A DNA stretch of 64,000 bases, from positions 26,233 to 90,232 of the forward strand of contig JBEKOM010000007.1 of NCBI GenBank assembly GCA_049521795.1, written 5' to 3'. Positions 1,536 to 46,658 of the stretch are shown here, in pieces. Below the pieces are notes generated by a model. It saw nothing but the letters and a program-made list of their open reading frames with translations. It did no database searches and was not told the origin of the DNA. The stretch's first letter is position 1, and the number at the start of each line of letters is the position of its first letter. This DNA is from Candidatus Bathyarchaeia archaeon. GTDB taxonomy: Archaea > Thermoproteota > Bathyarchaeia > Bathyarchaeales > Bathycorpusculaceae. A program made the position numbers and the translations under genes.

Positions 1536-1636
1536 CGCTATCCGTGCCTTTTTCCTTTTCAGCTTCGATTTCGCTTCTCCCAAGTGCGATTTAAGTCTTG
1601 TTTGGTTGCGCGCACGCAAGAAAAGAAAAGAGGGAA

Positions 1637-1939
1637 CTATTTTTTAAGTTCGACAACTAAGAGGTCTAAATCGGTTTTCCCTGTGTTCTCAGCTTCGTGA
1701 GATTGAGCCTTAAGGAAAATTGCCTGACCAGTCTTCAAGTCTAATACATCTGTTTTTCCTGAAGATGTCAGCTTTGCCTTGCCACCTTTGAGAACATATA
1801 CCACATGGTCTGGATGGTTATGCATTATCGCCTTGTCGCCTGGCTTAAACAGGGCTTCAAGTACACGCACACGGTCGTTTTCCATTATGAACTTGTAGAC
1901 GTTTTTGGCCACTTTAATTGGGTCTTGCGCTTTTTCCGT
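1637..1939 (-). CDS. cupin-domain protein
   Basis: ENDRVRVLE...MHNHP...HEAEN cupin motifs. Start uncertain: ACG at 1939 after GGAGGTG, or ATG at 1888. Confidence 0.8.
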   Translation of the reverse strand, partial: TEKAQDPIKVAKNVYKFIMENDRVRVLEALFKPGDKAIMHNHPDHVVYVLKGGKAKLTSSGKTDVLDLKTGQAIFLKAQSHEAENTGKTDLDLLVVELKK

Positions 1940-2058
1940 TATTCCACCTCCAGTTTCCTCATTCCTTCTTACACTCTTTGCTTGCATACTTAAAAATATG
2001 TGACTGTAAGGGCGCGCTTCACCCCGAACCAAACGTTCTAGAAAGCCGTGCTGATTAT

Positions 2059-2697
2059 CTAGCCGTCGAGCTGTGGAATTCGCCGAGCCAGTTCGACCCA
2101 GTTTTCAGCAACGATCTTTCTTATTAGCGGTTTGAGACCAGCAAAAACCTGTGGCGGCATAAGAGTCATCCAACCCTTTGTAATTACAACCCTGTCATCA
2201 AGGCTAAGCAAGGGGAACAGCCACTCAACTAGAGTTGGGAATCTTTCAGGCGGCACTTTTTTTGACATGAGGCCAACAATGGAGGCCTGTTCGCTCTCTG
2301 TTGTTCGTTCTCTCAGGATCGGATACAGATGAGCGTCTTCTTTGTCCAAATGAATTCTCAGATGCGAAGCTAGGACTGCTGTCGCCCTCGCTGTTGTCAG
2401 AGGATCAGGTGCTCTTCGCATTGCTTCCAGCCCACTAACCATGGTGTCAAGCTCACGGTGATCCATGAAGTAAGCCTCCGCCACAAGAGGGGTTACATTG
2501 TCAACAGCGGGAAAAACCGCCGCCTCCTCGCCCCTAGCGTGATAGTCCAAAATCTCGCCCATAATATGAAGTCGATCCAAAACGGCAGTTAGATCCCCGC
2601 CACTACGTGCTATTTTGAAGACTGAATCATCAATCTGGAAAATATCACGACGAAACGCATTATGAATAGAGCGCACTATGTCAATCGGTCCAGACAA
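2059..2697 (-). CDS. hemerythrin/HHE cation-binding domain protein
   Basis: H...HxxxE...H...HxxxE pattern (IHNAFRRD, YHARGEE, DHREL, HLDKED). Confidence 0.85.
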   Translation of the reverse strand: MSGPIDIVRSIHNAFRRDIFQIDDSVFKIARSGGDLTAVLDRLHIMGEILDYHARGEEAAVFPAVDNVTPLVAEAYFMDHRELDTMVSGLEAMRRAPDPLTTARATAVLASHLRIHLDKEDAHLYPILRERTTESEQASIVGLMSKKVPPERFPTLVEWLFPLLSLDDRVVITKGWMTLMPPQVFAGLKPLIRKIVAENWVELARRIPQLDG

Positions 2698-2790
2698 AGA
2701 TTCACACCCACATTTGAAAAGTCACGTCGAGTATAAAGATATGTTGCTGTAGTTCCACAGTCAGAAAAATCGAATTTTTCTTAGTCTCAG

Positions 2791-2890
2791 GTTTGGGGTA
2801 AAGTTTTATCCAACCAACCAACCATTACGGACGACGACGGACGACGACGGGCCAACGACGGACGACGGAAACGATAAACGCACGACGGAG
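2791..2890 (+). repeat. dispersed palindromic site GGGTAAAGTTTTATCC with CAAC and GACG low-complexity arm (copy a)
   Basis: Near-identical cores at 4846, 26181, 39106(rc), 39306, 40124(rc), 41057(rc), 44904 and 46622. Confidence 0.85.
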
Positions 2891-3190
2891 GATGGAAGGG
2901 AGGATGGAACAAAAGTGCTTTTCAACGTTAAGAAATGTATATCTTAAGCTCTTCTTAAGACGTACATTTCACAAACAGGGATGGACGGTGCTCTTACTTC
3001 ATGTGCGAAAGTGTAAGAGAATTGAGTAAAAGGCTTTATGCCACTTGCCAATGAACTTCTGCCGATAGGAATGTGTCGCGCGCGCTTGAAGTCTATCTGG
3101 GATATGACCAAGAAGCACAAGATCAAGCAATGGAGATCAGTGAATGATTTCGCGCGCTAAAATTGCTGAAGCATCTTGCGCGCGCTAAAA

Positions 3191-3307
3191 GTCTACGGAG
3201 AGCAAATAGAGCATTTGAATCCAGAAGAGCTTGCCAATCTAGTCAAGATCTGCGGTTTTCTTATGCAGACCAAAGTCTACCTATTCTGGAAGACCTGCGA
3301 TAGGTAG
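3191..3307 (+). pseudogene. 3' remnant of a proviral ABC-ATPase/GNAT gene
   Basis: Translates VYGEQIEHLNPEELANLVKICGFLMQTKVYLFWKTCDR*; KICGFLMQTKVYLFW is identical to the C-terminus of 50187..51650. Starts right after a GCGCGCGC run. Confidence 0.9.
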
Positions 3308-3348
3308 TTTCCCGACCTCAGATACAACGTGTGCGGTCGCTCTTTGCT

Positions 3349-3522
3349 CTAGTCTATCTCGCCAGACCCCTCACATCTTGGGCAGGTAACTTCTCCAGAA
3401 CCGCCACAACGACTGCATTGCTTTGTGTGGTCACTAAGCAAATCGACCTTCTCACCATATCCGCTGCAGCTCTTGCAGCTGACAGTCCCTTTGCCATCAC
3501 AGCGAGGGCATGTTCTGACCAT
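3349..3522 (-). CDS. 57 aa DnaJ-type zinc-finger protein (4x CxxCxGxG)
   Basis: Manual translation MVRTCPRCDGKGTVSCKSCSGYG...QCSRCGGSGEVTCPRCEGSGEID*; below the ORF-track cutoff. Confidence 0.85.
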   Translation of the reverse strand: MVRTCPRCDGKGTVSCKSCSGYGEKVDLLSDHTKQCSRCGGSGEVTCPRCEGSGEID

Positions 3523-3669
3523 TATCGTTCACCATGTCTACATTGGCATGCAGTATAACTGCATTTATGATTTTCTATATTCCCAAGTATTGAGCTAGAC
3601 ACGTGGAAGAGCAGACATCAACGACCGATAGCGTGCGCGTTAACTTGACCAACTCTCTTTTCGGTAGCG

Positions 3670-4722
3670 CTAGCTGGTCAGTTCCTTGATTTTCTTGAAA
3701 ATGTCTTGAGCATAAATCTTTGTTCCGCAATGATCACATCCAGTTTCATTTCCTTCACTTGGCATATTGACGGGTCCATTACAATGAGGACACCTCAGCG
3801 TTGTCAATACCATTCCTCCTTTCTCCATCAACGATCTAAGTGAAGAGAAATCCAGCACAATCGACTTTTTCTCCTTCTGTAGGATAATCTTGTCTCTAAA
3901 GTCCTTCTTAATAGATGACCCACCATCATATGTGTACTTCACATTGTCCGCATAGACATACACATTATCGGATCCGTTGATGGCAAAATCCTGAATGGAT
4001 TGCAGCGCAAATTCCCTCTCTGGCTTGATAGATTTGACTTCGGATAACTGGAGAGCAAAATCCAGCGCATTTGGCATTGATCCATCCTTCTTCGCAAAAA
4101 ACTCTCTTTTCAAAACAGCAAGCCTCTGATTGGTGAGAACATATATGCATTCGCCAGAATAGAATAGATCGCCCTCGCCCTCATTTGCGGTCTTCACTAT
4201 GTATTCTCCAGCTTTCAAGGCCACTTGGTCTCTCCATGGTGGAGGTGGCGGTCTAATGATCGTGCCGGGCGCACGCGGAGCAAGTCCATTCTCTTGTTTG
4301 TAGGCAGTTTCGAGGCTTTCGGCCAGCCTCTCTTCTGAAAAATCAGCAAAGGAAAGGCGTATTTCGTCAAACTTGCTGGTCTCACTATGAGGCCAGATCC
4401 GTATGAAGTCAGCGTGAATGTCCAATGGGATAATACTCGTTTCTCCAGGACCTAAGTCTGCTGTCCAAGAATTTTCCTTGTTCTTCCAGAACCGCAGATC
4501 TTCCCTCTTGTAGTTAAACTCGTAAATCTTGAGTTTGTAGCCAACTCCTTTGCAGAATTCGTTACAGACTTTCTTGATGGTTCGACTGTATTGTCTGATC
4601 GCTTGGTTTTTCTTCTCGATCTCTTGTACCACTTTCTCTTCTTTTTCTCTTTCAAGCCTCTGCGCGTCTTCTTTGAGATTTCTGAGGCGGTCCCGAAAGC
4701 TCATTTCTTTCACTTCCATCAT
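3670..4722 (-). CDS. hypothetical protein: N-terminal coiled coil, PH-like middle, C-terminal zinc ribbon
   Basis: 350 aa ORF; YVLTNQRL (PH-like), CPHC...CDHC and a PPPPP linker. Confidence 0.7.
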   Translation of the reverse strand: MMEVKEMSFRDRLRNLKEDAQRLEREKEEKVVQEIEKKNQAIRQYSRTIKKVCNEFCKGVGYKLKIYEFNYKREDLRFWKNKENSWTADLGPGETSIIPLDIHADFIRIWPHSETSKFDEIRLSFADFSEERLAESLETAYKQENGLAPRAPGTIIRPPPPPWRDQVALKAGEYIVKTANEGEGDLFYSGECIYVLTNQRLAVLKREFFAKKDGSMPNALDFALQLSEVKSIKPEREFALQSIQDFAINGSDNVYVYADNVKYTYDGGSSIKKDFRDKIILQKEKKSIVLDFSSLRSLMEKGGMVLTTLRCPHCNGPVNMPSEGNETGCDHCGTKIYAQDIFKKIKELTS

Positions 4723-4800
4723 TCACGATATTCGACTGACGACTTATTTATTGTTAATGGAGGAGTTCAAAGCGCAGCGCGCGGTGCGCGCGCGATACCT

Positions 4801-4861
4801 GTCCACCAACCGTCCGTCGTGGTCGTCGTCGTCCGTCGTTGGTTGGGGTAAAGTTTTATCC
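4801..4861 (+). repeat. dispersed palindromic site (copy b), GTC arm on the left side
   Basis: CGTCCGTCGTTGGTTGGGGTAAAGTTTTATCC; the arm is the reverse complement of the right arm of copy a. Confidence 0.85.
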
Positions 4862-4894
4862 TTACTCAGTGCACTTGTCGGGTAGGGATTTCAA

Positions 4895-5590
4895 GTGACC
4901 ATGGAGATTTTTCCGTTTTCTCTTGGGTTTAATGATTGTTACGTTGTCCAGGATCAAGGCGTCATAATGATTGATGCTGGTGTGCCTGGTAAAAAAACTG
5001 ATTTCGTAAGAGCGATGAAGAATATTCGAATGGAACCCCAAGACATCAAGCTAATTGTTATTACGCATGGGCACCCAGACCACATGGGTTCTGCCAAGGA
5101 CATAAAAGAAATCACGGGAGCTAGAATCGCTATGCATCAACTGGACAAGGTGTGCCTCGAAACTGGAACATGGAATACCACGGGACACAGGCTCAAGGGC
5201 ACAGGTTTTTGGAGCTCGATAGCTGCAGGAATATCCAATTCATTTGTCGACCTGCGCCATTCCAAAGTTGCCGCTTGCGACGTAGAAGTCACCATTGATG
5301 ACACAGGTGCGGACTTGGCAAATTATGGAATTCATGGGCAAGTGGTCTACACTCCTGGACACGCCGTAGGGTCACTTAGTGTGCTCTTGGATTCAGGAGA
5401 GGCTTTTGTCGGAGATCTTGCGATGAACAAGCTTCCGTTGAGACACAATCCAGGGCTACCGGTCTTAGCCGACGACATGGAGAAGGTAAGGGAAAGCTGG
5501 AGAAAATTGTTGAAACTCGGTGTTACAACGGTCTACCCTGGACATGGAAAACCCTTCTCAGTGGAAGTCATAGAAAAGGTTTTGAAGTAG
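4895..5590 (+). CDS. MBL-fold metallo-hydrolase
   Basis: THGHPDH, TPGH, GD and PGHG motifs. Confidence 0.92.
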   Translation: MTMEIFPFSLGFNDCYVVQDQGVIMIDAGVPGKKTDFVRAMKNIRMEPQDIKLIVITHGHPDHMGSAKDIKEITGARIAMHQLDKVCLETGTWNTTGHRLKGTGFWSSIAAGISNSFVDLRHSKVAACDVEVTIDDTGADLANYGIHGQVVYTPGHAVGSLSVLLDSGEAFVGDLAMNKLPLRHNPGLPVLADDMEKVRESWRKLLKLGVTTVYPGHGKPFSVEVIEKVLK

Positions 5591-5787
5591 CGCGCGCTTC
5601 GAGGGGTCGTGTGGAATCCAAATCGTATGAAGAATGTTGATGTGCTCTCCGTTTTTGGTCCTGGAAACCCGCTGCCGTTCTTAGGCTCAATATTTCGGGT
5701 CAGTTCTGGCAATTCATAACGTTTTAGTGGCTCTGGCTCAGAAGTGAGTGCAGCGTTCGACGCGTTTGACGAGAGAACCGTGATGGC

Positions 5788-5988
5788 ATGTTAAAAGTCA
5801 AAGTTAGCGGGAATTTCTTGAAGAAGCTTGTGAAGATCAGTTGCATAGTTCAGCTTGCAAACGCGTTCATGGACTATTTTCTGTGGGTGACTGTTGGCTA
5901 CCACGTTCCCTCTTGGACGCTTGCCACTTTAGTCGTCGGGTACAGTGTTCTGTTGTTGTCGTATGATAGACTGATATCCGAGGCTTAG
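5788..5988 (+). CDS. small membrane protein
   Basis: 66 aa with two hydrophobic segments. Confidence 0.45.
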   Translation: MLKVKVSGNFLKKLVKISCIVQLANAFMDYFLWVTVGYHVPSWTLATLVVGYSVLLLSYDRLISEA

Positions 5989-6124
5989 CCTGCGGAGTTT
6001 CCGTCCGATTCTACTGACATGAAACCGCTCCAACTAGCATCTTTTACTAGTGGGCACGTTGCGGTCAGCTTGCCTTTCGTGCATCAAAACTGTTCTTAGG
6101 TGTTCGCGTTGCTGGAGAAGTTCC

Positions 6125-6244
6125 TCACTTAGCTTTAACAACTTCTTTGCTACAGATGGAGCACAAATCGCAGTCCAGTATTTGAATGAGTTCGCAGGGC
6201 TCTAATTCGCGTCCACACCTATCGCAGAAGATCTTTCTAACCAT
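6125..6244 (-). CDS. 39 aa zinc-finger microprotein
   Basis: MVRKIFCDRCGRELEPCELIQILDCDLCSICSKEVVKAK*; CxxCG...DLCxxC. Confidence 0.6.
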   Translation of the reverse strand: MVRKIFCDRCGRELEPCELIQILDCDLCSICSKEVVKAK

Positions 6245-6672
6245 GCATGTCATCAACCCAAACCGTCTGACAGGGACACTGAACAATCTTGGACGCCACG
6301 TTAAAAAGGCATATTCCCAAGCCGCAACATCTGAGTCAACATGGCCTCGTCATGTCTGAGTCAAATAGAAGATTGTTCCATAAGCTATAAGTGATCAAAA
6401 CTGTACTAAGGAATGTAAATGAGGGAAATGGTCTGTCACTTCGATGGGAGAAAGGAGAGAAGGGAGCAGAAATTAATTCTTCCATTTCCCTCATTCACTT
6501 CCGCTACTTCATGCATATCTTGCTTTTAAATTTTTTGTCTGTTTTTTGAATTCTATTCTCAAAAAAATGACAAGAAAGTGCTTTTAGCTCATGGTTTGCC
6601 CGGTTTCTTGTTTGAATTTCTCCTTTTCCATGAAAAATGCGTGTAGGCCATGCTTAAGACGGCCACGTAATC

Positions 6673-7230
6673 CTAACTGAATTCTCGTAGTATCTGCTCA
6701 ACTGTCATTGTCTTCGCGTTGTAGATTTCTTTCAAGTATTTGAGTCCTTGTTCATGGTCTTCCTGGGTGAAGGCTTCGACTCCGTCTTCTGCGACTGTGA
6801 TCTTGTATCCTCTGAAGAAAGCGTCCGCAGCTGTGTGTCTGACACATATGTTCGTGTGCAAGCCTGTGAGGATCACGGTCTTGACTCCTTCTCCGTGGTA
6901 CAAGCCTCTCAGCAGCATGTCTAAGCCAGTTTCGTGGAAGCCGCTGTACGTTCTCTTTTCGACGACATAATCCTTCTTGGTGGGTCTCAGCGCCGGAATC
7001 ACTTCTGCTCCAGCAGTGCCCTTTATAGCGTGTTTTCCCCACTTCGCAACGACCTCCTCATCTAGGGGAAGATGCGCATCGTTGCTATAGATAATTGGCA
7101 CTCCGTGTTTGCGGGCGGCCACGATAAGTCTTCTCAGGTCTGGAATTATGTGCAACGCTCTCTCGCACTTTAAGTCTCCAGTGACGAAGTCGTTGAGCAT
7201 GTCAAGAACTATTACGGTTTTTCTGTCCAA
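6673..7230 (-). CDS. isochorismatase/nicotinamidase-family cysteine hydrolase
   Basis: Catalytic D-K-C triad in LDMLNDF, EKRTYSGF and TNICVRHT. Confidence 0.92.
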   Translation of the reverse strand: MDRKTVIVLDMLNDFVTGDLKCERALHIIPDLRRLIVAARKHGVPIIYSNDAHLPLDEEVVAKWGKHAIKGTAGAEVIPALRPTKKDYVVEKRTYSGFHETGLDMLLRGLYHGEGVKTVILTGLHTNICVRHTAADAFFRGYKITVAEDGVEAFTQEDHEQGLKYLKEIYNAKTMTVEQILREFS

Positions 7231-7290
7231 TAGAATCGTGCTCCTGAAACCATCTGAATGAAAAGGGACGAAAAATAGTTTATGGTAGAC

Positions 7291-8364
7291 TCATCTTGCA
7301 GTCTCCAAACTGTAGAACCCATCAGTGAACTTCTCCGACACGCGTTGCTTCACAAGCACGCTGTCTTCGATTCGGACGCCTCCGAAACCTGGAATGTATA
7401 TGCCCGGTTCGTCCGTTACTACGTTTCCCACGGCTAGCCTGTCCTTGCTGATCGGAGACAACCCTGGGCCTTCGTGAACCTCCAACCCTACTCCGTGACC
7501 CAATCCATGGTTGAAATACTCACCGTAACCTGCATCCTCTATTATCTTGCGGGCCGCTTGATCTACGTCTTTTCCTCGTGCTTTGGCCCTTATTGCCCGA
7601 TAAGCCTCTTCTTCGGCTGCCTTCACGACCTCGTAGAGTTTCTCCTGCTTGTCTGATGGTTCGCCAGCGACGAAGGTCCTTGTCATGTCAGAACAGTAAT
7701 ACTCGTAAATTGCCCCGATGTCAACGACTACCAGATCGCCCTTGCGGATTTTTCTCTCAGCGCAGCCACCGTGAGGGTATGCAGAGCGAATGCCCGAGGC
7801 CACGATCGTGTCAAACGCTGTTCCGTAGCCTCCTTTCTTCCGCATTGCGTACTCGATTTCGGCTGCGACCTCGACCTCAGTCACGTCAGGCTTTATTGTT
7901 TCGTAAGCGGCTTTCATGCCTGCGACGGTTATTTCCCCAGCCTTTCGCATGCGGCTGAGTTCCTCGTTGTCCTTTACCTTACGCAGTCCGCGGACGAGGT
8001 CTCCTTGAGCTTTCAGTCTTGCGTGTCCACGAATGGCTTTTGCTAGGAGACGGTGGAGTTCGTAGCTGAGCGCGTCTGACGCGAGTTTCTTGACTTTCAA
8101 CGCCTTGAGACCTGGGCCGATTTTCTCACCGAGTTTTTGGCCTCGTTTGAGGAGCTCAACCTCGAACCCTTTCGCTTCTGCCTTTGTCTGCTCGTAGTTG
8201 ACGCCGTACACGTAGATCGTGTTTTCCCCTTTCTTCGGAATCACAAGGCACATTGCGCCGGGGGTTCCAGTTAAATACAGCAGATTAGACTCGTCTGCCA
8301 CAAGAAATGCATCAAAATCTTTCTTTTCAAAGGCTAGTTCTTTAAGAGCATCGATCCTCTTCAA
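7291..8364 (-). CDS. Xaa-Pro peptidase (M24 family)
   Basis: [28 protein letters not shown] and RIED metal ligands. Confidence 0.95.
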
Positions 8365-8427
8365 TGGTGCTCACCGCTATGAAAGAATCTCTTACTACAG
8401 GTTCTTGGCTAAAATGCTTTGCTCTTC

Positions 8428-8718
8428 TCAGCCGCCGCTGACCACCGGCATCAAGATAACGTGATCCCCGTTTTTGAGTTTAGTTTCAACGCCCTTTAGC
8501 TGGTTAAGGAGGAACCCGTTCACAGTGGCCATGAAGTTTGATTTCACGTCTGCGCCGCCAGATTCGTAGACAGCTTTCTTGAAGGGCTCCCCGTATTTTC
8601 CAGACAGCAACCCAAGCAGGTCGGCGATTGACGAGTCGTTTCTCATCTCAATTTCCTCTTGCCTCTTGTCGCCAGTCAGGTTCTTGATGTGTCCGAGGTA
8701 TTCAACCTTGACTTTCAA
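8428..8718 (-). CDS. MoaD/ThiS/SAMP ubiquitin-like protein
   Basis: Beta-grasp pattern ending PVVSGG; TTG start at 8718. Confidence 0.9.
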   Translation of the reverse strand: MKVKVEYLGHIKNLTGDKRQEEIEMRNDSSIADLLGLLSGKYGEPFKKAVYESGGADVKSNFMATVNGFLLNQLKGVETKLKNGDHVILMPVVSGG

Positions 8719-9054
8719 CGCTGGACACCGATCTCTTCTATGCAATCCTAGAGTCAATATCGTTATATATTCGTTTCAGTCGTCGCCTCGCAGAGAGGTC
8801 GTGCGCAAAAGACCGCATTCAAAGACAAGCGACGGCCCCCTCCATCTTCCCAAGCCAAGTTGAACTTCTGACTTGAGAGCCTTCACCATAGGTGGGTAGA
8901 TGAAATGGGAGGGAAACCGCCGAACACAGATATACGAGGAACATCTCAAGATACTTACCGTTAGCTGGGGTTCTTCTTTCGTCCATCAGGAACGTTCATT
9001 TAAACAATTCTTTTATGTTTGCCGAATAGTCTAGTTTCTAGGTGCCTTCGATTG

Positions 9055-10734
9055 ATGTTCAACAAGAAGAAACTGAATGACATTCAAAAACAGATGGAAA
9101 ACTGGGAGAAGAAAACCGTCGTGAAGAGTTTCGACAGGCTTCCAGAAAGAGGCGAGTTGTCAACAGACTCAGGAATCCCTGTCAATAGACTCTACACTCC
9201 AATTGACGTGGCAGAATTCGATTACATGAAACAGCAAGGTTTTCCAGGACAGTATCCGCTTACGCGTGGTGTCTACCCAACGATGTACCGAGCCCGCTTT
9301 TGGACCATGCGGCAGTATGCGGGTTTTGGTACGGCTGAACATACAAACAAGCGTTTCAGGTACTTGCTGGAACACGGACAAACTGGGTTGAGCGTTGCTT
9401 TCGACTTTCCCACGCAGGTTGGATACGACTGTGACCATCCCATGGCGCTCGGCGAGGTCGGAAAGGTCGGAGTCAGCGTGAGCACGCTGAGAGACATGGA
9501 GGTCCTCTTTAACCGAATCCCGCTTGACAAGGTAACAACGTCGATGACGATCAACGCCCCTGCAAATGTACTGCTTGCAATGTATGCCGCCGTAGGGGTC
9601 GAACAGGGTGTTAAACAATCGCTGCTTGGCGGTACAGTTCAGAACGATGTTCTGAAGGAATACGTGGCCCGAGGCATGTACATATTTCCGCCGAAACCTT
9701 CGATGCGAATGATTACGGACATCTTCGTTTACTGTAGCCAGAACATGCCGCAGTGGAACACCATAAGCGTGAGCGGCTATCACATACGCGAAGCCGGCTC
9801 CACTGCTGTTCAGGAAGTTGCTTTCACGTTGGCAAACGCCATTGCCTATGTACAGGCAGCCATTGACCGAGGCTTGGACGTGGACAAGTTTGCTGGAAGG
9901 TTGTCCTTCTTCTTCGCGGCCCACAGCAACTTCTTCGAAGAAGTTGCCAAGTTCAGGGCAGCACGCCGGCTGTGGGCGAAGATCATGCGAGAACGATTCA
10001 AAGCCAAGAATCTCAACTCGTGGATGCTTCGTTTCCACACTCAGACATCTGGAGTTTCACTCACGGCTCAGCAACCGTACAACAACGTTGTGCGCGTGGC
10101 GTTGCAGGCTTTGTCAGCAGTTCTGGGAGGAACTCAGTCTCTGCACACCAACTCGTTCGATGAAGCTTATGCTTTGCCCAGTGAGCATGCTGTGACGGTT
10201 GCCTTGAGGACCCAGCAGATAATCGCCTATGAGAGCGGAGTCGTAGATACTGTTGACCCCTTGGCTGGTTCGTATTACATTGAGTACATGACGAATGAAA
10301 TCGAAGAGAGGGCACGAAAGTACATTGACAGAATTGACAGTATGGGCGGCGCGGTCGCTGCGATTGAGAAGGGTTTCATGCAGCGTGAGATCACCGAGAG
10401 CGCTTATCGCTTCCAGAAGGAAGTCGAGGCCAAGAAGAGAATTGTTGTCGGCGTGAATGACTTCATCGGCGAAGAACAGGTTCCGATCAAGACCTTGCAG
10501 GTGGATCCGATTGTAGAAAAGACTCTTGTCGAACGGTTAAAGGAGATAAAAAACAAGAGAAACCAGTCGAAGGTTAGCGGGGCCCTAGACAGGTTGCGCG
10601 TTGCGGCTGAACGCGAAAACGAGAGTCTGATGCCCTTCATGCTTGAGGCCGTCAAGGAATATGCAACTTTAGGCGAAATATGCGACGCGCTACGCGAAGT
10701 TTTCGGTGAGTATAAACCGCCTTCCATCTTTTAG
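9055..10734 (+). CDS. methylmalonyl-CoA mutase, large (substrate-binding) subunit
   Basis: [36 protein letters not shown] and QSLHTNS; no B12-binding domain (split archaeal type). Confidence 0.96.
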
Positions 10735-11285: not shown

Positions 11286-11287
11286 CC

Positions 11288-12832: not shown

Positions 12833-12896
12833 CGCTGGCTACCTCTGCAGTCTGCTAGGACTAGGAATGTGAAAAGTGAGTTGAAGGTGTATTAAT

Positions 12897-36467: not shown

Positions 36468-36497
36468 CTCGGCGCGCGCTAGGATATTCTGAAACAA

Positions 36498-37010: not shown

Positions 37011-37038
37011 CGCGCGCGGCGCGCGGGATCTCGCTAGT

Positions 37039-38901: not shown

Positions 38902-39047
38902 TGCGCATCATAACCTGTCTTAACATGCGCGGCTTATATTCGGATGTGAAAACAGAGTGTTCATCCTGACTCTGCGCACTCGCCCGGTCTAATATCCGCC
39001 TGCAGTCAGATAGTCAACTGTGACGGTGGGTCGTTAGAGCGCGCGCG

Positions 39048-39333
39048 CTAAGTAAGTATAGTAGAGTAAGTCAGAGAGTCGCAGTCGTAGAAGGTTTGGG
39101 TTTGGGGATAAGACTTTACTCCAAAACCCCAAAATGCGCCCAGTAATATCGAACTATCTGATTTTCCCTGTTTTGATAAGAAGAGCATAGTCGAGTGTGC
39201 TTCGCGCGCGCGACAAAAACCCGAAAAGGTAAGCGGCATATTCGCCACCGGCGGTGCCATGAAAGGCTAGTGGCCAGTTGTGCGCGTGACGGTGTTGGTT
39301 GGTTGGGGCAAAGTTCTACCCAAGCGCGCGCGC
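39048..39333. repeat. two palindromic sites (copy d reverse, copy e forward) among CG runs
   Basis: GGATAAGACTTTACTCCAAAACCCC at 39105 and GGTTGGGGCAAAGTTCTACCC at 39301. Confidence 0.7.
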
Positions 39334-39437
39334 TAGCTCTGTTGTTTGCTCAATACCTGAGAAACGAAAAACAAACATGGATTCCCAGAATTGTCAATTT
39401 GAATTAATCTATTTACGCGCGCCCTTCTCTTTGCGTA

Positions 39438-39665
39438 TCAGAACCAACTACGCTTTTTCTTAGCGTGAAGCGATGAATGGTCTCTTCTACTCATAACAGT
39501 CAAATTGCTCTTTCTGAAATTGCTCTTGTTCCCATCTATGTGGTGGACAACTCTTCCCTTTCCTATCCGACCCCCAATCATATTCGATGCTACACTCCTA
39601 TGCACTAATTTCCTGCTATCGCGCCATCTTGGGTAGCCTTTCTTGTCTTTGTATGTGTTCCCCAT
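39438..39665 (-). CDS. small stand-alone HNH endonuclease
   Basis: VHR...VVHHIDGNKSN...SNL...H. Confidence 0.85.
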   Translation of the reverse strand: MGNTYKDKKGYPRWRDSRKLVHRSVASNMIGGRIGKGRVVHHIDGNKSNFRKSNLTVMSRRDHSSLHAKKKRSWF

Positions 39666-40203
39666 AGTCACACCCAAGGACACTACGTGTTGTCCTTACT
39701 TAAGTAGCGCGCGCAGTTAGGGACTGGAATGTTTGATGACGTCATCTCTGTCAACTTCTAACTGTTCATCCCTTGCTCTAAAGACAGTTTCATTCATTAT
39801 TACTACAACCCATCCTAGCATCCTACGGCAGACGTTAATGTGTCCCATTGGTATCGAAGAACAATTTCGAGGAAAAACGTAATATGATTTATGAATCTGG
39901 AAAATTTATTAGAAGTTAAGACTAGACTGTCACGTGCGCGTCAAATAGCGCGCGCTGTGACGGCTGATTTCGGGATATATCTCCACTTTATTTGTTTGCA
40001 GGCGAGAGCCTCTATGTGGACATCTGGTACTGTTATCATTTAGGCACGCCGTATTCACACCTACCAAAAACCACCGTACAGCTTCACGGCTAGCTCGGAA
40101 GCTCCAGCGTCGTTAATTTTCTTGATAAAACTCTGCCCAAAACCACCTTGTGTTTACACAAGTCATAAAACTGAAGCATAGGGTACGAATACAATGATGC
40201 AAA

Positions 40204-40957
40204 TTGGAAGATGTTCAGAGACTTGAACAGTACTGGCATAGACTACTCTTTAACTTTCCTCAAACTAAGGATGTGAAAGGAGCAGTCATTTCATATTACC
40301 CTGCGCTTCCCATTCCTCAATTCAATTCTGCTGCAGACATCAACGTCAACGAGGATGAAGCCGAAGACCTGCTGAACAGAGTAACGGAACACTTTCAATC
40401 ATTAGGCTCTAGTTTTGTTCGTTTTCGAATTACCCCGTCCAAAAACGTTCGGGTCTTTTCTTGAGAGTCATGGATTTGAGAAGAAAGAAGAGGAGTCAAT
40501 AATGGTGTTCAAAGGAGGGCAGTTGGAAGATAAACTGAACCGTGAGGTGGAAGTGAGGGAAATATCTGAAAGTGAAGTAGATGTCGGTAACAGGCTTGCG
40601 TTCACAGTGTTCGAATTTCCAATTGAGTTGAAAAAAGAGTTTGATAAATTCGCACTTGATTGGATGCAAAAAGGAGGAAAATACTTTGTGGGCTATGTTG
40701 ATGGAAAACCTGTCGGAACCAGCTTCTTATTTTCCTTGATGAAAACTGGAGGAATATTCACCGTAGGAACCTTGAGTGGATACAGGAACAGGGGCATCGG
40801 AACAACCTTGACCGTTGACGCCATAATGGAATCCATCAAAGAAGGAAACGACCTCCACACATTGCAGACAGAAAAGGGAGGAAATGCGGAAGTGCTCTAC
40901 AAAAAGGTCGGGTTTGAAGTTGACCACATCGCTTCATTGTACGTCAAGAAACTCTGA
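40204..40957 (+). pseudogene. GNAT acetyltransferase split by a frameshift near 40437
   Basis: The N-terminal ORF ends RITP and the other frame resumes RPKTFGSFLE...YRNRGIG...LYKKVGF. Confidence 0.75.
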
Positions 40958-41082
40958 TGTTGAAGACAATGTAGATGGAGATGGAGTTTAACCGCTATCA
41001 GCATCCCAATCTCAGGCTGTTTCTGTCACCCTTACAGCGTCATCGTTAACACACAAGATAAAACTTTACGCGCGCGCGAGCA

Positions 41083-41228
41083 TGCAACAAGCGAATGGAG
41101 GAACAACGAGCCTCGCAGACCTGAACGGCAACCCAATAGGCTCAGCCAACACAGAGACAACAGCAATGACATTACTACCTTACAATAATGAAGTTATTTC
41201 TAGGATGCAAAATCTAACTGAACTTTAG
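41083..41228 (+). pseudogene. probable C-terminal gene fragment
   Basis: MQQANGGTTSLADLNGNPIGSANTETTAMTLLPYNNEVISRMQNLTEL*, bracketed by CG runs at 41069 and 41237. Confidence 0.45.
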
Positions 41229-41260
41229 AGATTTAAGCGCGCGCGCTAAGTTCTCACATA

Positions 41261-41686
41261 GTGGTCAAAATGAATGAACCAGAACGAGACGTGAAATCGA
41301 TCTGTGAGCTTGAGTACAAAGCAAGGGAGGCTGCCAAGGCAAAGGATCTCGATCGATATGTCTCCTTCTATGCCGACGACGCTGTCTTGCTCTGGCCTGG
41401 AACACCGATGATCATTGGCCGTGCTGCGATCCGTAAGTTCATGCGAGTCTTTTTCTCAATGCCCGAATTCTCGCTCAGCTTTGAAACCGCCCGTGTAGAG
41501 GTGTCTCCATCCGGCGATTTCGCGTACACATGTGGTATAAACAAGGTGACTCTAGTGGACCTGAATGGCAAAAGAATGAAAGACAGTGGTAAGTATCTGA
41601 CCGTCTACAGGAAGCAGTCTGATGGTACATGGAAGGTCGTGGCGGACATGGGTAACTCCGATCTGCCAGCACTAGTTCCGGCGTAG
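41261..41686 (+). CDS. NTF2-like/SnoaL (DUF4440) protein
   Basis: YADDA...GRAAI...SGDFAY...GKYLTVYRKQSDGTWKV. Confidence 0.9.
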   Translation: MVKMNEPERDVKSICELEYKAREAAKAKDLDRYVSFYADDAVLLWPGTPMIIGRAAIRKFMRVFFSMPEFSLSFETARVEVSPSGDFAYTCGINKVTLVDLNGKRMKDSGKYLTVYRKQSDGTWKVVADMGNSDLPALVPA

Positions 41687-41699
41687 AATCAAGCTCACG

Positions 41700-42020
41700 C
41701 TAAACAATCGTGTGTTCCTCGAGCATTACCCATGTGCCTTTCCTCGTAAATTCCGCCGAGTCTGCCATGACTTTCTTAAAAGCAGGAGAGGACATCATTT
41801 TCTGAACAACCGCCATATTTTCGAACCAGAGCTCCGCTATACCCTGGTACCCAGGCTCCTCGCCCTCGGCAGACATAACGATGCTGACCACGTATTTCTT
41901 GAGCATATCACCGAATTGCTGTTTCGCCAATGGAGCATGCTTGGTCAACCAAAAGTTGACGAACTCATTCTTACTCATGCCCTCCTTCGCATACACCTTC
42001 ATCACAATCTTAACCACCAT
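41700..42020 (-). CDS. EthD-family protein
   Basis: GMSKNEF..FW...HAPL...GIAELWF. Confidence 0.88.
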   Translation of the reverse strand: MVVKIVMKVYAKEGMSKNEFVNFWLTKHAPLAKQQFGDMLKKYVVSIVMSAEGEEPGYQGIAELWFENMAVVQKMMSSPAFKKVMADSAEFTRKGTWVMLEEHTIV

Positions 42021-42204
42021 CCAGTTTTCACCTCCTCTCCATTCCTGTACTCCTATAGCGACCTACCTCAACGCTTTAAGAAACGTTCAGCCCCTGAAAG
42101 TATGTAAGATCGATTGATGGCGCGCGCGAGTGATGAGAAGAAGCCCGACCACTGGCGAACACTTAGCCTACAGGTATGTTGTTGAATAACCCAATTTGCC
42201 ACAA

Positions 42205-42573
42205 TTACTTCGTCCATGCCGCCGCGTTCAAAATTGTTTTCAGAACACCTTCTGCATCATCACGTATCTTATAACGAATAGAAAGCTGACCTGCCTCAGT
42301 CAATGATGGGACTTTTTCAACAATCTTGGCTTTCAAAAGCACTCTTAGGTGTTTCTCGACAGTCGACCTATGTCGATCGAGCCTCCTTGCGATTTCGCCT
42401 GGGTTTGAAACTCCCTGCCCTATGCACTCCAGAATTCGGAGTCGAGATTTGTCAGCAAGAGCCTTCAGAAACCTTTCAGTTGTCTCGTATCCGCTCATCA
42501 TTGACGCCTTTTCTTGAAGATTCAGTGTATTGCCTCCCAGCAAATAAATTTGCCCGTTGGCAAACAAAATCAC
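42205..42573 (-). CDS. ArsR-family HTH regulator
   Basis: LKALADKSRLRIL...STVEKHLRVL; start uncertain. Confidence 0.88.
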   Translation of the reverse strand: MILFANGQIYLLGGNTLNLQEKASMMSGYETTERFLKALADKSRLRILECIGQGVSNPGEIARRLDRHRSTVEKHLRVLLKAKIVEKVPSLTEAGQLSIRYKIRDDAEGVLKTILNAAAWTK

Positions 42574-42635
42574 TCAATCCTCTGGAAACCATTATCTCAA
42601 ACGAGACAGCAATACAGACTAGAACGTGATAACTT

Positions 42636-43655
42636 GTGTATCATCCAACGGTAAAAGGCACATACTACGACATGGGTCATAGGTATGGAACAGTCCTTCA
42701 CGGACACGGTTTCAAAGTTTCAAGCCAATCGAAAGAAAAACTCGATTTCGGTAGAGAATCTGAACCAGAAGTCAAACGCGTCTTTCCCGAGATCCTAGAG
42801 GAAATCAGAGGATTTGCAGACGCTTGTAACGCACCGTACGAGCAGCTGACAGCTTTCATGTGCAGTATCGGCGCCTTCAAAGCCGAACCCAACTGCAGTG
42901 TATTCGCTTCCTTCACAGGCTCCGACGTTGTGTTCGGCCGAAACTACGATTTCCTGTACAGTTTCAAAAAATACTCCGAAAGCTACCTAACTTGCCCCGA
43001 AAATGGTTACAGCAGTCTTGGCCACACAGACGTTTTCATTGGACGGGAAGACGGCATAAACGAGAAAGGTCTGGCCATAGCCATGACTGGAGTGAGTTCT
43101 CCAGGAAACCATCCAGGCGTAAGCTTCTGCCTTGCCATCCGATGCGTTCTCGACAAATGTGCCAACGTCGACGAAGGAGTCAGAGTTCTCGAAAACGTTC
43201 AGCACGTTTCAACTTTCAACTACCTTCTTGCCGACAAACGAGGAAACATTGCCGTAGTCGAAGCATCGCCCGATAAAGTACGAGTACGAAGACCCAACAA
43301 GGGCGAAGATTTCATTGTTTGTACAAACCATTTTGTCCATCCAGAGATGCAGGACAAGGAAGACCCCAACGCGAGAAGCACAACTGAATGGGATTCACAG
43401 CCAAGATACGCAACGATTTCGCGTATTCTAAAAGAAAACAGTGGAAAAGTCAACGTTAGACTTGCTGAAAGAATCCTGTCAAACCACAGTGGCTACGTCT
43501 GTTCGCATCAACAGAAAATAAGGTTAGGCACGATCTGGTCAGTCATCGCAACTTTGAACGCGCCTCAGATCCTGAGAGCAGAAGGACATCCATGCAAAGC
43601 AAGCTACAGACGCGACCTCCGACTTAACAAAGTCATCCAAGAGCGAAGAATGTAA
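42636..43655 (+). CDS. C45-family Ntn hydrolase/acyltransferase
   Basis: CS nucleophile, GRNYD, GINEKGL and TNHF. Confidence 0.9.
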   Translation: MYHPTVKGTYYDMGHRYGTVLHGHGFKVSSQSKEKLDFGRESEPEVKRVFPEILEEIRGFADACNAPYEQLTAFMCSIGAFKAEPNCSVFASFTGSDVVFGRNYDFLYSFKKYSESYLTCPENGYSSLGHTDVFIGREDGINEKGLAIAMTGVSSPGNHPGVSFCLAIRCVLDKCANVDEGVRVLENVQHVSTFNYLLADKRGNIAVVEASPDKVRVRRPNKGEDFIVCTNHFVHPEMQDKEDPNARSTTEWDSQPRYATISRILKENSGKVNVRLAERILSNHSGYVCSHQQKIRLGTIWSVIATLNAPQILRAEGHPCKASYRRDLRLNKVIQERRM

Positions 43656-43760
43656 CAAGCGCGCTAATCCCACTTGACAAAAGTTCGCTACTCTATTTTT
43701 TGGAAATCTTGAACGACGAACCAAAACGCGCGTGCTATATGCGGGGTCCTTGTTCCCATG

Positions 43761-44135
43761 CTAGGTCCTTGAGACTTCGCTTGCGCCTGTGTCCTTTTGG
43801 ACCACGCAGAAGAGGTTGCCATCGGGATCCTCTAGCACACGGAAGTCATCATCAGGCTCATACGTCTGGGGATGGCGGGTCGCTCCGATTTTGAGCAATC
43901 TCTTCACCTCATCCTCTCTGTTGTCGGTATAGAGGTCGAGGTGCAACCTACTCCGACCTAAGCGCTTCTCCTGGTCTCGGTTCAAAGACACGTTCGGATT
44001 TCTTCCCTCAGGATCACGAAGAACGACCCAGCCCTCCTTCGCAGGCTCTCTGGGGACGTAGTGGAGCGCCGCCTGCCAGAATGCCGACATCTTGTCGAAC
44101 TCACTACAATCGATAACGATCGAGCCGATTTTCAT
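43761..44135 (-). CDS. VOC/glyoxalase-family protein
   Basis: IVIDC...FW...RLHLDL...DPDGNLFC. Confidence 0.9.
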   Translation of the reverse strand: MKIGSIVIDCSEFDKMSAFWQAALHYVPREPAKEGWVVLRDPEGRNPNVSLNRDQEKRLGRSRLHLDLYTDNREDEVKRLLKIGATRHPQTYEPDDDFRVLEDPDGNLFCVVQKDTGASEVSRT

Positions 44136-44533
44136 TTCCCATCCTCCACCTTGCCTCCATCAACTCACGCTAAAATATCTTGCGATTCGAGGTTCTGTCA
44201 ACTTCTCATGGGATAGCCATACACGTTAACTGTCGTAGGATAGATGTTAAGCCAAAGTAAGATTCTGTTTCCAAACCAAACCAAATTTCAACGACTTCAG
44301 CATGATTCTGGGAAAGCAGGTTGAGTCACGTGTATGCTAGATTCAGCGTACATAGGGAGTTCTCATGGTATGGAAAAGAAGGCTAGTACTAGAAATCAAG
44401 ACCATAATAGGGCAGGAGCATAGGTAGTATCGGAATCGAGTATACGCTCTTTCAAGGGCGCATTTCGTCACAAGTGATTTAAGCTAAGAACAAGATAACA
44501 GGATTTTTGCGTTTTGGTTTGTAGGGAGGTGAG

Positions 44534-44884
44534 TTGAATATGACAAACTTTGTTGTCTTAATGAGTAAAGGGCCTTTCCATGGAGAAGCAGAATGGCCGT
44601 TTAGATTTGTTGATTTAGCACTTGACAATGGCCACAAAGTCCAAGTTTTCCTCGCAGAAGATGCTACTTGGATTGCAAAAAAAGGCCAACAATATGACGT
44701 TTATCCAAACTTAGAAGAATACATCAAAAATGCGGTCAAAAAAGGTGCAGAAATCAAAGTATGTGAAACCTGCAGAAAAAGACGAAATTTGAGCGAGAAA
44801 GATTATCTCCCAGGACTAGTAAAGGGGACAATGACAGGATTCATAGAGGCAGCAGCAAAAGCAGACAAAGTGCTAACATTTTAG
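44534..44884 (+). CDS. DsrE-family protein
   Basis: VFLAEDA...VCETC...ADKVLTF; SD GGAGGTGA. Confidence 0.88.
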   Translation: MNMTNFVVLMSKGPFHGEAEWPFRFVDLALDNGHKVQVFLAEDATWIAKKGQQYDVYPNLEEYIKNAVKKGAEIKVCETCRKRRNLSEKDYLPGLVKGTMTGFIEAAAKADKVLTF

Positions 44885-44891
44885 TAGGAAA

Positions 44892-45000
44892 GTTTGGGTT
44901 TGGGGGTAAAGTTTTATCTTTTTCTCGCTCTCATTCTTACGCTTACTCTACTACTCTCTACCCTTCACTCTCTCACTCTCTCTACACACACGCACACACA
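44892..45000 (+). repeat. palindromic site (copy h) with CT/CA low-complexity arm
   Basis: GTTTGGGTTTGGGGGTAAAGTTTTATC followed by CATTCTTACGCTTACTCTACTA... Confidence 0.75.
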
Positions 45001-45071
45001 TAGAAAAAACAGAGTCTATGAGTTTACGGAAAAGTTATAGCTCAACCGAAAGTGACTGTGTTGGTTGGTGA

Positions 45072-45623
45072 GTGGAGTTGCTTGAAGGCAAGAATGTGAA
45101 TCTGCGAATCATGGAGAAAGAGGATTTGCCACTTTTTGCAGAATGGTATAACAATCCAGAATTCTTGGGCGAAGCTCTTTTCCCAATTCAGAGGTCTATG
45201 ACAGAATCAGAAAAAGCATTTTTGGAACCTAATCCCTACGAATCAAAGAGGTTCATTATAGAGAAGAAAGATGGAACCAAAATCGGCACCATATCCCATT
45301 TCAACATGTTAAGCACCGTTGGGAAAGTGCTGGAGATAGGCTACGCCTTGATGCCAAGCGAAAGAGGAAAGGGCTGCTGCACCGAAGCTATACAGCTAAT
45401 GGTGGGCTATCTGTTTATCAGCAAAGAAACCCCTCGCATTCAAGCCCTTACGCTTGTCAAGAATGTTGCTTCACAGAGAGTTTTGGAAAGGGTAGGCTTC
45501 AAAAAGGAGGGTGTAATGCGGAAATGCTTTTACATTCGAGGAGAATGGTCAGACTTCGTAATCTTCAGCATTCTTAGAGAAGAATGGAAAGAACCAAAGA
45601 TACTAACAAGAACCGAGAAGTAG
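45072..45623 (+). CDS. GNAT acetyltransferase (RimJ/RimL type)
   Basis: EIGY...ERGKG...NVASQRVLERVGF..EG. Confidence 0.92.
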   Translation: MELLEGKNVNLRIMEKEDLPLFAEWYNNPEFLGEALFPIQRSMTESEKAFLEPNPYESKRFIIEKKDGTKIGTISHFNMLSTVGKVLEIGYALMPSERGKGCCTEAIQLMVGYLFISKETPRIQALTLVKNVASQRVLERVGFKKEGVMRKCFYIRGEWSDFVIFSILREEWKEPKILTRTEK

Positions 45624-45796
45624 AAAGGTTCTGTCTGTCATTAACACAGTAAGCGGTATTTGAGCTTCTTTTCTATCTGACATTCTTTTCATGATGTAGT
45701 CTTTAATACTGATTCACCTAGTCTTGTCTTCTAGGTATCAATAATGGTTGAGATACAGACTGTTTCTGGCGCGCGTGATGAAGGGGGCAAGCAGAT

Positions 45797-46563
45797 TGGA
45801 CCTTAGAGGTAAAACGCTGATCGTAACAGGAGCTTCAAGAGGAATCGGCCGAGCTTTAGCCTTAGAACTGGCTCAAAACGGTGTCAACCTTGTCTTGAAC
45901 GCCCGAAGCGAAGCACCCCTCGAGGAAGTGGCTACTGTTGCCCGAGGGAAAGGTGTGAAGACATTGACAGTAGTGGGCGATGCTGCGCTAGCCAGCAAAG
46001 CTCGGGAGATGGTGAAAGCCGCGGTTGGCATCGGCGAATTCATCGGTTTCATTCACAACGCGGGAACCGCTCATCCAGGTCCATTCTTGTACGAACTACC
46101 TGAAGCCATGTTCAAGAATGTCTGGCGAACCAACGTGTTAGCTGGTTACCAGATCGCGCGCTTCTCCTACCCAGAGCTGCGCCGAAGAAAGAGTGGCCTA
46201 GCGGTATTCTTTGGGTCGGGAGCCGCGAAGATGAACGTAGAAGGCATGGGAGCCTACTGCCTATCCAAGGCAGCCGAAGAACACTTGGCGAGGCAACTCG
46301 CCGCTGAGGCTCCAGAAATCACTTGTTTCGTGTACCGACCTGGAGTTGTCGACACTGAGATGCAGAAGGGTGCCCGCGAAGCAAAAGGCAGCGGGGCTGA
46401 GGTGTTACACCGAGTCTTCGGAGAGTTGAAGGAGCGAGGAAGCCTCCTAACTCCCGAAAAAGCCGCGCGAGGATTAGTGCAGATACTACAAGGAGACCCG
46501 CGCCACTTTCACGGCAAGATAGCTAGCTACGGCGAGATAGCTACCTACAAGGAGGGATTGTGA
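45797..46563 (+). CDS. short-chain dehydrogenase/reductase
   Basis: TGASRGIG, HNAG, YCLSK and PGVVDT; start approximate. Confidence 0.92.
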
Positions 46564-46658
46564 AAGTAGCGTGTGAATGCCAAGGGCTTTCTGCTCGTGT
46601 GTGTTGATGTTTGGCGCGCGCGTAAAGTTTTGCCCCCAAACCCAAACGAGCGCGCGCT

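Follow-up and report, generated by a model that had tools for sequence, protein, structure and literature searches.

The window analysed here is a 64-kb stretch of DNA from a Candidatus Bathyarchaeia archaeon of peat (contig JBEKOM010000007.1, positions 26,233 to 90,232; C7 below). Its source genome, G000, is an assembly of 2.44 Mb in 69 contigs with 48.5% G+C, in which we found no archaeal 16S gene. The window combines a core gene block, a zone of mostly single accessory genes, two tandem tyrosine recombinase genes just past that zone (47410..50153, minus strand) and a block of genes described as a viral structural operon in the original prediction, which was made from the sequence alone. Rfam finds no family and ARAGORN no tRNA in the window. 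Our subject is the short stretches of alternating C and G that lie between the accessory genes. A run is defined as a maximal alternating CG stretch of at least 6 bases, and many of the counts below use runs of at least 8 bases. Comparisons within and between genomes support a role of these runs as joints, not as terminators or conserved signals, and their palindrome most likely marks sites of DNA cutting and rejoining.

A total of 58 runs are found in the window, 27 of which reach 8 bases. All 30 positions named in the original prediction hold a maximal alternating run of 6–10 bases; the runs are therefore real, while the estimate of roughly 40 was too low, since 51 fall within 1608-46657. 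Based on the run list, Markov counts, flanks and gene map, we delimit a run-rich zone at 1608..47436 with the consensus (T)A-GCGCGCGC-T(A). This zone contains 53 of the 58 runs, most of them separating single accessory genes. The scarcity of runs in the core block and in the putative viral operon, also claimed earlier, holds: the region from 6.0 to 20.6 kb has just 3 (at 17854, 18675 and 20661) and the region from 50 to 64 kb just 2, both six-mers.

Runs can lie very close to each other and to genes. For example, the run list places three runs of 6, 10 and 8 bases inside 37 bases (37736..37772), with spacers of 7 and 6 bases, and two runs abut at 37010..37025, the first overlapping the TAG stop of the open reading frame (ORF) 36498-37010. 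Similarly, the run at 5590..5597 shares its first G with the TAG stop of an ORF with a metallo-beta-lactamase fold (4895-5590).

The excess of the motif is large at both scales. Within the window, GCGCGCGC occurs 30 times against 1.2, 1.3, 2.5 and 9.6 expected under Markov models of orders 1 to 4, and CGCGCGCG 21 times against 1.0–8.7. Across G000, GCGCGCGC is the most frequent of all 8-mers, with 417 occurrences compared to 34.5, 30.2, 36.0 and 92.1 expected at the same four orders. The enrichment that had been proposed as a check on the prediction is thus present in the window and in the whole genome.

The runs have a defined shape. For lengths 4 to 13, the maximal run counts in G000 are 8840, 2083, 543, 198, 219, 107, 56, 3, 3 and 1. 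This spectrum is not geometric: it has a peak at 8 bases and stops after 10. Among the eight-base runs, 191 of 219 begin with G and finish with C. The genome has 389 runs of at least 8 bases, and the base before them is A in 220 cases and the base after them T in 242. TA is the most common outer dinucleotide on both sides, and past the second flanking base no position is conserved. These features define a palindromic unit, (T)A-GCGCGCGC-T(A), that also has a 10-base version, past which the lengths break off sharply. A sharp 8-base peak followed by a stop after 10 is not the pattern that free tailing or slippage would give, so that the untemplated CG addition put forward in the original prediction is not supported.

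The placement of the runs is as distinctive as their shape. With gene boundaries taken from our own crude gene caller, on which the core/accessory and intergenic splits depend, 313 of the 389 runs (80%) are intergenic, 66 are coding and 10 lie at contig edges, compared to an intergenic share of 15.4% of the genome. Runs are present in all four kinds of intergenic region, about in proportion to length. As predicted, they tend to follow stop codons: 32 runs are within -3 to +6 bases of a stop codon and only 3 equally near a start codon. The palindrome itself reads TAG on both strands.

At the level of the genome, runs are clustered in variable islands. The highest density, 17 eight-mer matches per 10 kb, is reached on contig C13 (43.5 kb), a glycosylation island with a gene-run-gene-run layout. 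Its genes include GT2, GT4, two UDP-GlcNAc 2-epimerases (one of them truncated), DegT aminotransferases and an exosortase.

The runs are not intrinsic terminators, for which a hairpin and a T run would be expected. Only position +1 is T-rich after the runs, and neither a T-run nor a hairpin is present. Terminator-like sites are not enriched (17 compared to 20.3 in shuffles), and 1 of these 17 overlaps a run.

Several lines of evidence show instead that homology ends at runs. Within G000, 206 of 2303 repeat end-points fall at runs, compared to 45 in shifted controls. One such case in the window is the run at 26479..26487, which ends homology to three other G000 loci (on C10, C11 and C4), with matches stopping at 26486. 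We saw three cases of runs cutting recognisable sequences, none of them among the examples named in the original prediction.

We also compared G000 with G001, a congeneric genome in a single contig, of which 746,764 bases were used; the two are 88–93% identical in shared DNA, and 57% of this sample aligns. The sample contains 157 runs of at least 8 bases, of which 116 are in non-aligning DNA, 32 at alignment ends and 9 inside alignments; 4 of these 9 are conserved. This corresponds to about one such run per 2.7 kb of strain-specific sequence. Furthermore, 20 of 198 boundaries of gaps of at least 100 bases carry a run, compared to 4.5 expected from the density within gaps. Runs are thus enriched at breakpoints between related genomes, as the original prediction anticipated.

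Empty sites were examined in the same comparison. Of 42 such indel sites, 7 carry a run of at least 8 bases, whereas the frequency of runs in aligned DNA would predict about 0.05. Each of the seven runs takes the place of 129–881 bp kept by the other genome, whose allele is free of runs at both breakpoints. At four of the seven sites, one breakpoint lies inside an ORF and a truncated remnant of it survives beside the run, so that these four events are deletions. A further genome, G002, keeps the full state in three of three deletion cases tested.

The window itself provides an example on a larger scale. An 18.1-kb stretch (28551-46658) is missing from G001, with runs at both breakpoints and one run at the matching G001 spot. 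The left breakpoint is the GCGCGCGC run at 28543..28550, where G001 homology ends at 28550 and G001 reads CGCGCGC; the right one is the GCGCGCGC run at 46650..46657, after which homology restarts at 46659. The 18-kb insert also duplicates 45 bp of its target. In addition, a repeat of 45–70 bp is severed in the window at three different points by three runs. Copy 1 (28483..28547, plus strand) loses its 3′ side at the run 28543-28550 in the alignment, copy 2 (31308..31374, plus strand) its 5′ side at the run 31302-31307, and copy 3 (46659..46711, plus strand) its 5′ side, further in, at the run 46650-46657. G001 retains a P-type ATPase gene remnant with a run inside.

Taken together, homology that ends at runs, runs that replace sister DNA and a repeat cut by three runs mean that the runs behave as joints, as the original prediction had proposed. 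Two further comparisons add little: of 6 inversions that distinguish G000 from G001, 2 have breakpoints at runs, which is too few to use, and no repeat family was found in which all copies have both ends at runs. At the G001 spot that matches window positions 28550/46659 (locus L001, ~17000-17030, reverse strand), we also observed that the CG run is immediately followed by 11 C.

The runs are not an artefact of assembly or of chimeric molecules. Logan contigs from four public peat sequencing runs, belonging to four studies, cover the CG runs in 36400-42200 without differences (contigs span, for example, 37308-37802, 39098-39526 and 40968-41695), and four independent contig sets that carry the runs exclude such an origin. 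The only variation is found in one of the four sets, which has 2-base length variants at two 10-base runs: that at 39324..39333, two bases shorter there, and that at 41069..41078. Moreover, enrichment of the motif extends to relatives that were assembled separately, among them a single-contig genome.

We then asked how widely the motif is distributed. The close relatives found with the ribonucleotide reductase of the window are all Bathyarchaeia or Bathyarchaeota metagenome-assembled genomes (MAGs). All 10 other genomes of the genus contain 7–114 copies of AGCGCGCGCT, compared to 0–9 copies in 30 genomes from other genera of the family and order; a reversed control gives 0–4. For a class-level survey we used 301 Bathyarchaeia genomes that are at least 80% complete, calling a genome motif-rich if it has at least 28 copies of AGCGCGCGCT. 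Under this definition 16 of the 301 are motif-rich, in families f1, f26, f35 and f36; f27 and f29 are enriched as well. A full-text literature search found no description of the motif in archaea.

The same palindrome brackets a family of transposable elements. Small segments of about 200 bp found at differing loci in G000 and G001 are miniature inverted-repeat transposable elements (MITEs) whose ends read TA/GCGCGC-ATGCTTGTTCCTAAATT...AATTCAGGAACACGCTA-GCGCGC/TA. In G000 and the G001 sample, 15 MITE copies are bracketed by GCGCGC or by remnants of it with one or two mismatches, and TA lies outside most intact ends. All copies that were read show traces of GCGCGC as brackets, with degenerate remnants in older copies.

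A longer relative of these MITEs, an insertion sequence (IS), encodes a transposase. G001 has a 1078-bp copy, gTA/GCGCGC...GCGCGC/TAt, with a frameshifted DDE transposase that matches the Pfam models DUF772 (7.7e-11), DDE_Tnp_1 (5.2e-15) and DDE_Tnp_1_6 (3.3e-5). An intact copy with the same ends is present in G245. Its best NCBIfam match is IS1182, at 147.6 bits (below the cut-off of 270), followed by IS5_4 at 83.3 bits (below the cut-off of 140); we call the element IS1182/IS5-like. The transposase of the G245 and G120 copies has 323–330 residues. G120 has seven near-identical copies of about 1.1 kb with exactly 6 bases, GCGCGC, on both sides and TA at 11 of 14 outer flanks. Copies in G115 and G151 (about 50% protein identity) keep the CG bracket with inner repeats that differ. 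The element thus has terminal inverted repeats that bound one transposase gene and occurs in several copies.

The window contains a trace of this family. The terminal inverted repeat GCGCGCATGTGTGTTCC has its sole exact match there at 37884..37900 (plus strand); one exact and one two-mismatch match compare to 0.54 expected by chance. This match lies in a module of about 235 bp (37773-38006) with a run at its left edge (37765..37772), where the loose end of one metagenome contig begins at 37772, and a run at its right edge (38007..38015), as defined by the alignment of module copies. The module is also found on C3 and in G002, flanked there by one-mismatch runs or by GCGCGC.

Two other families of mobile DNA were noticed in passing. 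A second MITE family of about 183 bp is present at C2:171675-171857 of G000 and at least 11 other loci; its ends, GCGCGC-TGGSTTGTCCC, match the inner repeats of the G120 IS copies. A different IS of about 1.5 kb with GGTACTGTTAAGTT ends, target duplications of 7–9 bp and no CG runs is present in G001 (A:7252-8764, 116194-117634 and 251983-253520) and absent at the same G000 sites. The first MITE family, for its part, has about 40 copies in G002 compared to about 12 in G000.

The commonest palindrome of the genome is therefore also the bracket of a transposable element, including its TA flanks, and from the sequences a chance coincidence seems unlikely. Such an identity means that solo runs are left when copies go, or that the element seeks runs, or both. 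The original prediction regarded the runs as scars of an undescribed process: that they are joints stands, but "undescribed" is doubtful, since GCGCGC with TA flanks brackets IS1182/IS5-like copies and thus points to transposon biology.

Our preferred explanation, which we regard as plausible while stopping short of calling it probable, is that this IS1182/IS5-like family, made up of an IS of about 1.1 kb and MITEs of about 200 bp, has left the runs as scars or uses them as landing pads. Well-preserved copies would have the form TA/GCGCGC-element-GCGCGC/TA. GCGCGC is its own reverse complement, so that the hexamers at either end of an inserted copy repeat each other in direct and in inverted orientation alike. 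A copy could then be lost by transposase excision or by pairing of the two end hexamers: pairing in register would leave 6 bases, and pairing out of register 8 or 10. The outcome would be a clean solo TA-GCGCGC(GC)(GC)-TA with no further trace of the element. Elements of this kind may also prefer palindromic targets, in which case old scars would attract new insertions, and runs would pile up where insertion is tolerated, presumably between the genes of variable islands. Runs could finally come to lie at deletion joints and cassette edges when an element inserts into a DNA break, when the DNA next to it is deleted or when host DNA moves between two copies.

Two reports bear on such a scheme. 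IS1272, a member of the IS1182 family, is reported to insert at inverted repeats, which it replaces or duplicates (PMC5678879), and in a second study, movements of IS5/IS1182 and other IS accompany large deletions, without target duplication (bioRxiv 10.1101/2024.06.02.596822). We favour scars for four reasons: palindromic end hexamers permit a clean loss that leaves 6, 8 or 10 bases, which fits the length spectrum; IS1182-family members are described as acting on inverted repeats in this way; IS movement with large deletions and without target duplication could place first an element and then its scar at a deletion joint; and no unknown enzyme is required.

The likeness to IS1272 of Staphylococcus includes a DDE transposase with DUF772 and DDE_Tnp_1, terminal inverted repeats, and insertion tied to a palindrome that is replaced or duplicated at both ends (PMC5678879). 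The differences are that the palindrome here is one fixed sequence, (CG)3-5 with TA flanks, and not any stem-loop; that the IS1182 score falls well below its NCBIfam cut-off; and that, for IS1272, solo palindromes numbering in the hundreds per genome are not described.

More generally, parts of what we see resemble known things, namely palindrome-targeting IS elements, transposon footprints and the repeats HIP1 and REP discussed below. In Tc1/mariner and other cut-and-paste elements, short palindromic scars of the two tips, flanked by TA, outlast the element. TA likewise flanks the short palindrome here on both sides, but the runs are tied to large rearrangements and not to simple small insertions, and no DDE_3 transposase was found in G000. 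A mariner transposase was not found in G000 either, although that model matched no control genome, so that this blank says little.

A number of observations weigh against the scar explanation. While the identity between the enriched, breakpoint-associated palindrome and the element bracket is a direct observation, the descent of solo runs from lost copies and the manner of that loss are deduced and were not seen directly. More than 95% of runs are solo, and in the window 1 of 58 adjoins the inner repeat of the element. No intact transposase was found in G000, only a fragment of 113 residues (C13:17148-17483). A run cleanly gained within DNA that otherwise aligns is a rare event, with at most 2 cases among 157. 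In five large deletion events, the retaining allele has no run, no GCGC and no consistent TA at the breakpoints, which means that the events would take two steps or more, an insertion accompanied by deletion and a later loss. A search of G000 for gene fragments ending at runs, made through paralogues with tblastn, gives 17 of 599 compared to 11.6 in controls (control maximum 17), which is not significant.

The order of events is a further difficulty. At one orthologous site, G000 has a MITE, G002 reads TCA-GCGCGCGC-CA and G001 reads TCC-GCGGGCG-TCA, a one-mismatch run. One site with the element in one genome and a solo run in another fits the scar explanation, but its simplest history is insertion of a MITE into a run that was already there rather than departure of a MITE from it; an outgroup allele in the untouched state was not found. 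In addition, TA is missing on one side of the G245 and G151 copies, and GCGCGC could be either the tip of the element, with TA duplicated, or a duplicated target. Other candidate empty sites are silent on this point: the intact G245 IS has no orthologous site in five genomes of its genus, and opposite the G001 MITE at 123075, G002 has a 301-bp deletion with TTGG microhomology and no run, which does not reveal the target.

Finally, the link between element ends and motif copies is incomplete in both directions. In favour of a link, the end pattern GCGCGCNNGSKTGTYSC is found in 52 of 301 genomes (5 matches in all for the reversed control), among them 7 of the 16 motif-rich genomes compared to 45 of the 285 others. 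Against it, nine of the 16 are motif-rich without element ends (G099, with 131 motif copies, G090, G110, G161, G259, G108, G224, G226 and G117). Conversely, some genomes have many ends and little or no motif excess: G204 and G276 with 16 ends each, G186 with 9, and G168 with 7 ends and 1 motif copy. MAGs often miss repeats and related genomes are not independent, so this mismatch weighs strongly in neither direction.

Searches for other mobile enzymes in G000 found little. The TnpB zinc ribbon gave only a weak sub-threshold match, and no transposase family is among the multi-copy protein families adjoining runs. An HNH endonuclease gene in the window was considered as a driver of the runs and rejected, as it is single-copy in G000 and found in only 1 of 40 other relatives.

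Several of the same observations would suit an end-joining or DNA-capture process, as yet unknown, that places the CG palindrome at joints, with the IS and MITEs merely targeting ready palindromes; this is the model of the original prediction. IS1397, for example, prefers REP sequences as targets. Such a process would account for runs that stand in for 129–881 bp while the other allele is run-free, with four truncated ORFs left behind; for an 18.1-kb stretch bounded by runs together with a duplicated 45-bp target; for a run that seems older than the MITE at the three-way site; for motif-rich genomes without element ends; and for extra bases beside junction runs, for which no ectopic template was found in G000 or in the searched part of G001. 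We nonetheless consider it doubtful. The 8-base unit, the stop after 10 and the fixed A/T flanks are unlike free tailing, and it leaves unexplained why the filler should be the bracket of a transposon even in G168, which has almost no solo runs.

Nor was an enzyme for this process found. The original prediction suggested a search for co-occurring primase-polymerases and ligases, and G000 does have a complete operon (C5:41155-44957, locus L145) with a LigD primase-polymerase, Ku and a ligase fused to a 3′-phosphoesterase, followed by a DUF72 gene, which could seal breaks. Known Ku/LigD junctions carry one or a few added bases and not a fixed palindrome. As a motif maker, Ku/LigD looked near genus-specific among 41 relatives, but the association is gone at class level: Ku is found in 89 of 301 Bathyarchaeia genomes, most of them motif-poor and concentrated in few families, and in 4 of the 16 motif-rich ones, so that the presence of the operon does not track the motif. 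RVT_1 is found in 0 of 41 relatives, and profile searches of G000 found neither Prim-Pol nor the PolX palm. The suggested helper enzymes thus do not track the motif.

Returning to the transposon scars, an extension of this explanation is that the palindrome is the working part of a new gene-cassette system, in which self-complementary transposon tips leave a universal joint of 8–10 bases. DNA between two joints could then be cut out, flipped, deleted or moved, either through a transposase that works on solo joints or through repair that uses microhomology. We hold this to be unlikely; if true, surface-sugar and other accessory genes would be shuffled within and between Bathyarchaeia in an integron-like manner, without attC or integrase.

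An improbable alternative is a functional intergenic signal under selection, such as a protein-binding site, a Z-DNA-prone supercoil sink or insulator, or a stop-codon spacer. The defined length of the motif, its intergenic location, its proximity to stop codons and the TAG read in both directions would fit a signal. Conservation does not, with fewer than half of the runs in G000-G001 aligned DNA kept, and neither do the presence of runs in all four intergenic kinds roughly by length, the absence of terminator features, a core that is nearly run-free although regulation is needed there too, and runs that stand in for deleted DNA.

Two families of known repeats invite comparison in this respect. 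HIP1 is an octameric palindrome of cyanobacteria, GCGATCGC, which has been reported at deletion end-points, also occurs in genes and spreads by substitution. Like the motif here, it is one 8-base palindrome strongly over-represented in some lineages and not in their relatives; the runs differ in being mostly intergenic, in variable DNA and poorly conserved. Nor is the motif linked to a C5 methyltransferase, the one methylase class examined, which is present in 43 of 301 genomes and in 3 of the 16 that are motif-rich. Repetitive extragenic palindromes and the mosaic elements built with them (REP/BIME) are lineage-specific, imperfect, folding palindromes of 20–40 bases, often found after stops and targeted by particular IS. 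Hundreds of extragenic copies, often after stop codons and at the borders of variable segments, are common to both. The runs differ as perfect palindromes of 8–12 bases that form no stable hairpin and so fall outside REP; no search for the REP-associated transposase RAYT was made.

We find it very improbable that the runs are recombination sites of an integron-like cassette system, served for instance by the tandem tyrosine recombinases at 47.4–50.2 kb. The layout does suggest one, with regular gene-run-gene-run arrays in the window (26–47 kb) and on C13, recombinase genes adjoining the array and a single run in G001 opposite the run-18 kb-run of the window. Integrons, including those of archaea, likewise separate single accessory genes by a palindromic site and are patchy among archaea, but attC sites have greater length and are recognised in folded single-stranded form, with cassettes mostly in one orientation beside IntI (PMC9668308). 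Here, the site is only 10–12 bases with flanks that are not conserved, without an attC of about 50–150 bases with R and L boxes, and genes between the window runs are on both strands. Among the 32 clean indels that separate G000 from G001, not one combines runs at both insert ends with one run at the empty site, and duplication of 45 bp of target by the 18-kb insert is not expected of site-specific exchange.

The recombinases themselves are context only, with no tie to the runs indicated. They have weak Phage_integrase matches and are absent from the matching locus of G001, which has 9.4 kb of other DNA instead. The two genes overlap and encode 421 and 493 residues; the second also matches an archaeal phage integrase model.

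BssHII cuts G^CGCGC, and Chang and Cohen reportedly described in-vivo recombination by a restriction enzyme plus ligase in 1977. Cut-and-ligate shuffling by a BssHII-like enzyme specific for GCGCGC might yield the classes of 6, 8 and 10 bases, the stop after 10 and the G...C ends through ligation, 2-base shifted annealing and CGCG fill-in, but this is the least probable of the alternatives, as intact-allele breakpoints hold no GCGCGC, resident restriction sites are usually avoided and not enriched, the A/T flank preference is left unexplained, and C5 methyltransferases do not follow the motif.

Few uncultured archaea of sediments and peat are as abundant as the Bathyarchaeia, whose genome variation is little understood. 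A large share of the joints in their variable DNA carries one and the same 8-base palindrome, and the motif recurs in several families of the class. In MAGs, the run provides an easily recognised marker of rearrangement breakpoints, of accessory cassettes and of the borders of islands, and one transposon family emerges as a possible engine of gene-content change. If the scar explanation is true, transposon footprints would shape a prokaryotic genome at a scale known from eukaryotes; if it fails, the origin of a fixed palindromic filler at DNA joints becomes a testable question.

The window contains further features of interest. Directly after the 10-base run at 39039..39048 begins a short repeat (39049-39106) that is present at several loci of the genus, and a loose metagenome contig end falls at 39049. 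Between two runs lies the gene of the HNH endonuclease mentioned above (39438-39665, minus strand; HNH_3, 75 residues). Word depth over 39310-39697 is 40–270 in other peat sequencing runs compared to about 5 for the adjoining DNA, so that relatives of this gene are abundant in those peat samples.

The minus-strand gene block at 50204-64000, the viral structural operon of the original prediction, has a second copy on C6 that is 72–90% identical, and G001 shares 50204-53991 of it. Contigs C3 and C16 both begin with a sequence identical to the final 119 bases of the window. In the core block, the methylmalonyl-CoA mutase and carboxylase genes (8938-13026) match G001 twice, about 6 kb apart. In G001 this region is at local positions 31086-37070 of a joined piece (loci L001/L002), and the core block is therefore tandemly duplicated there.

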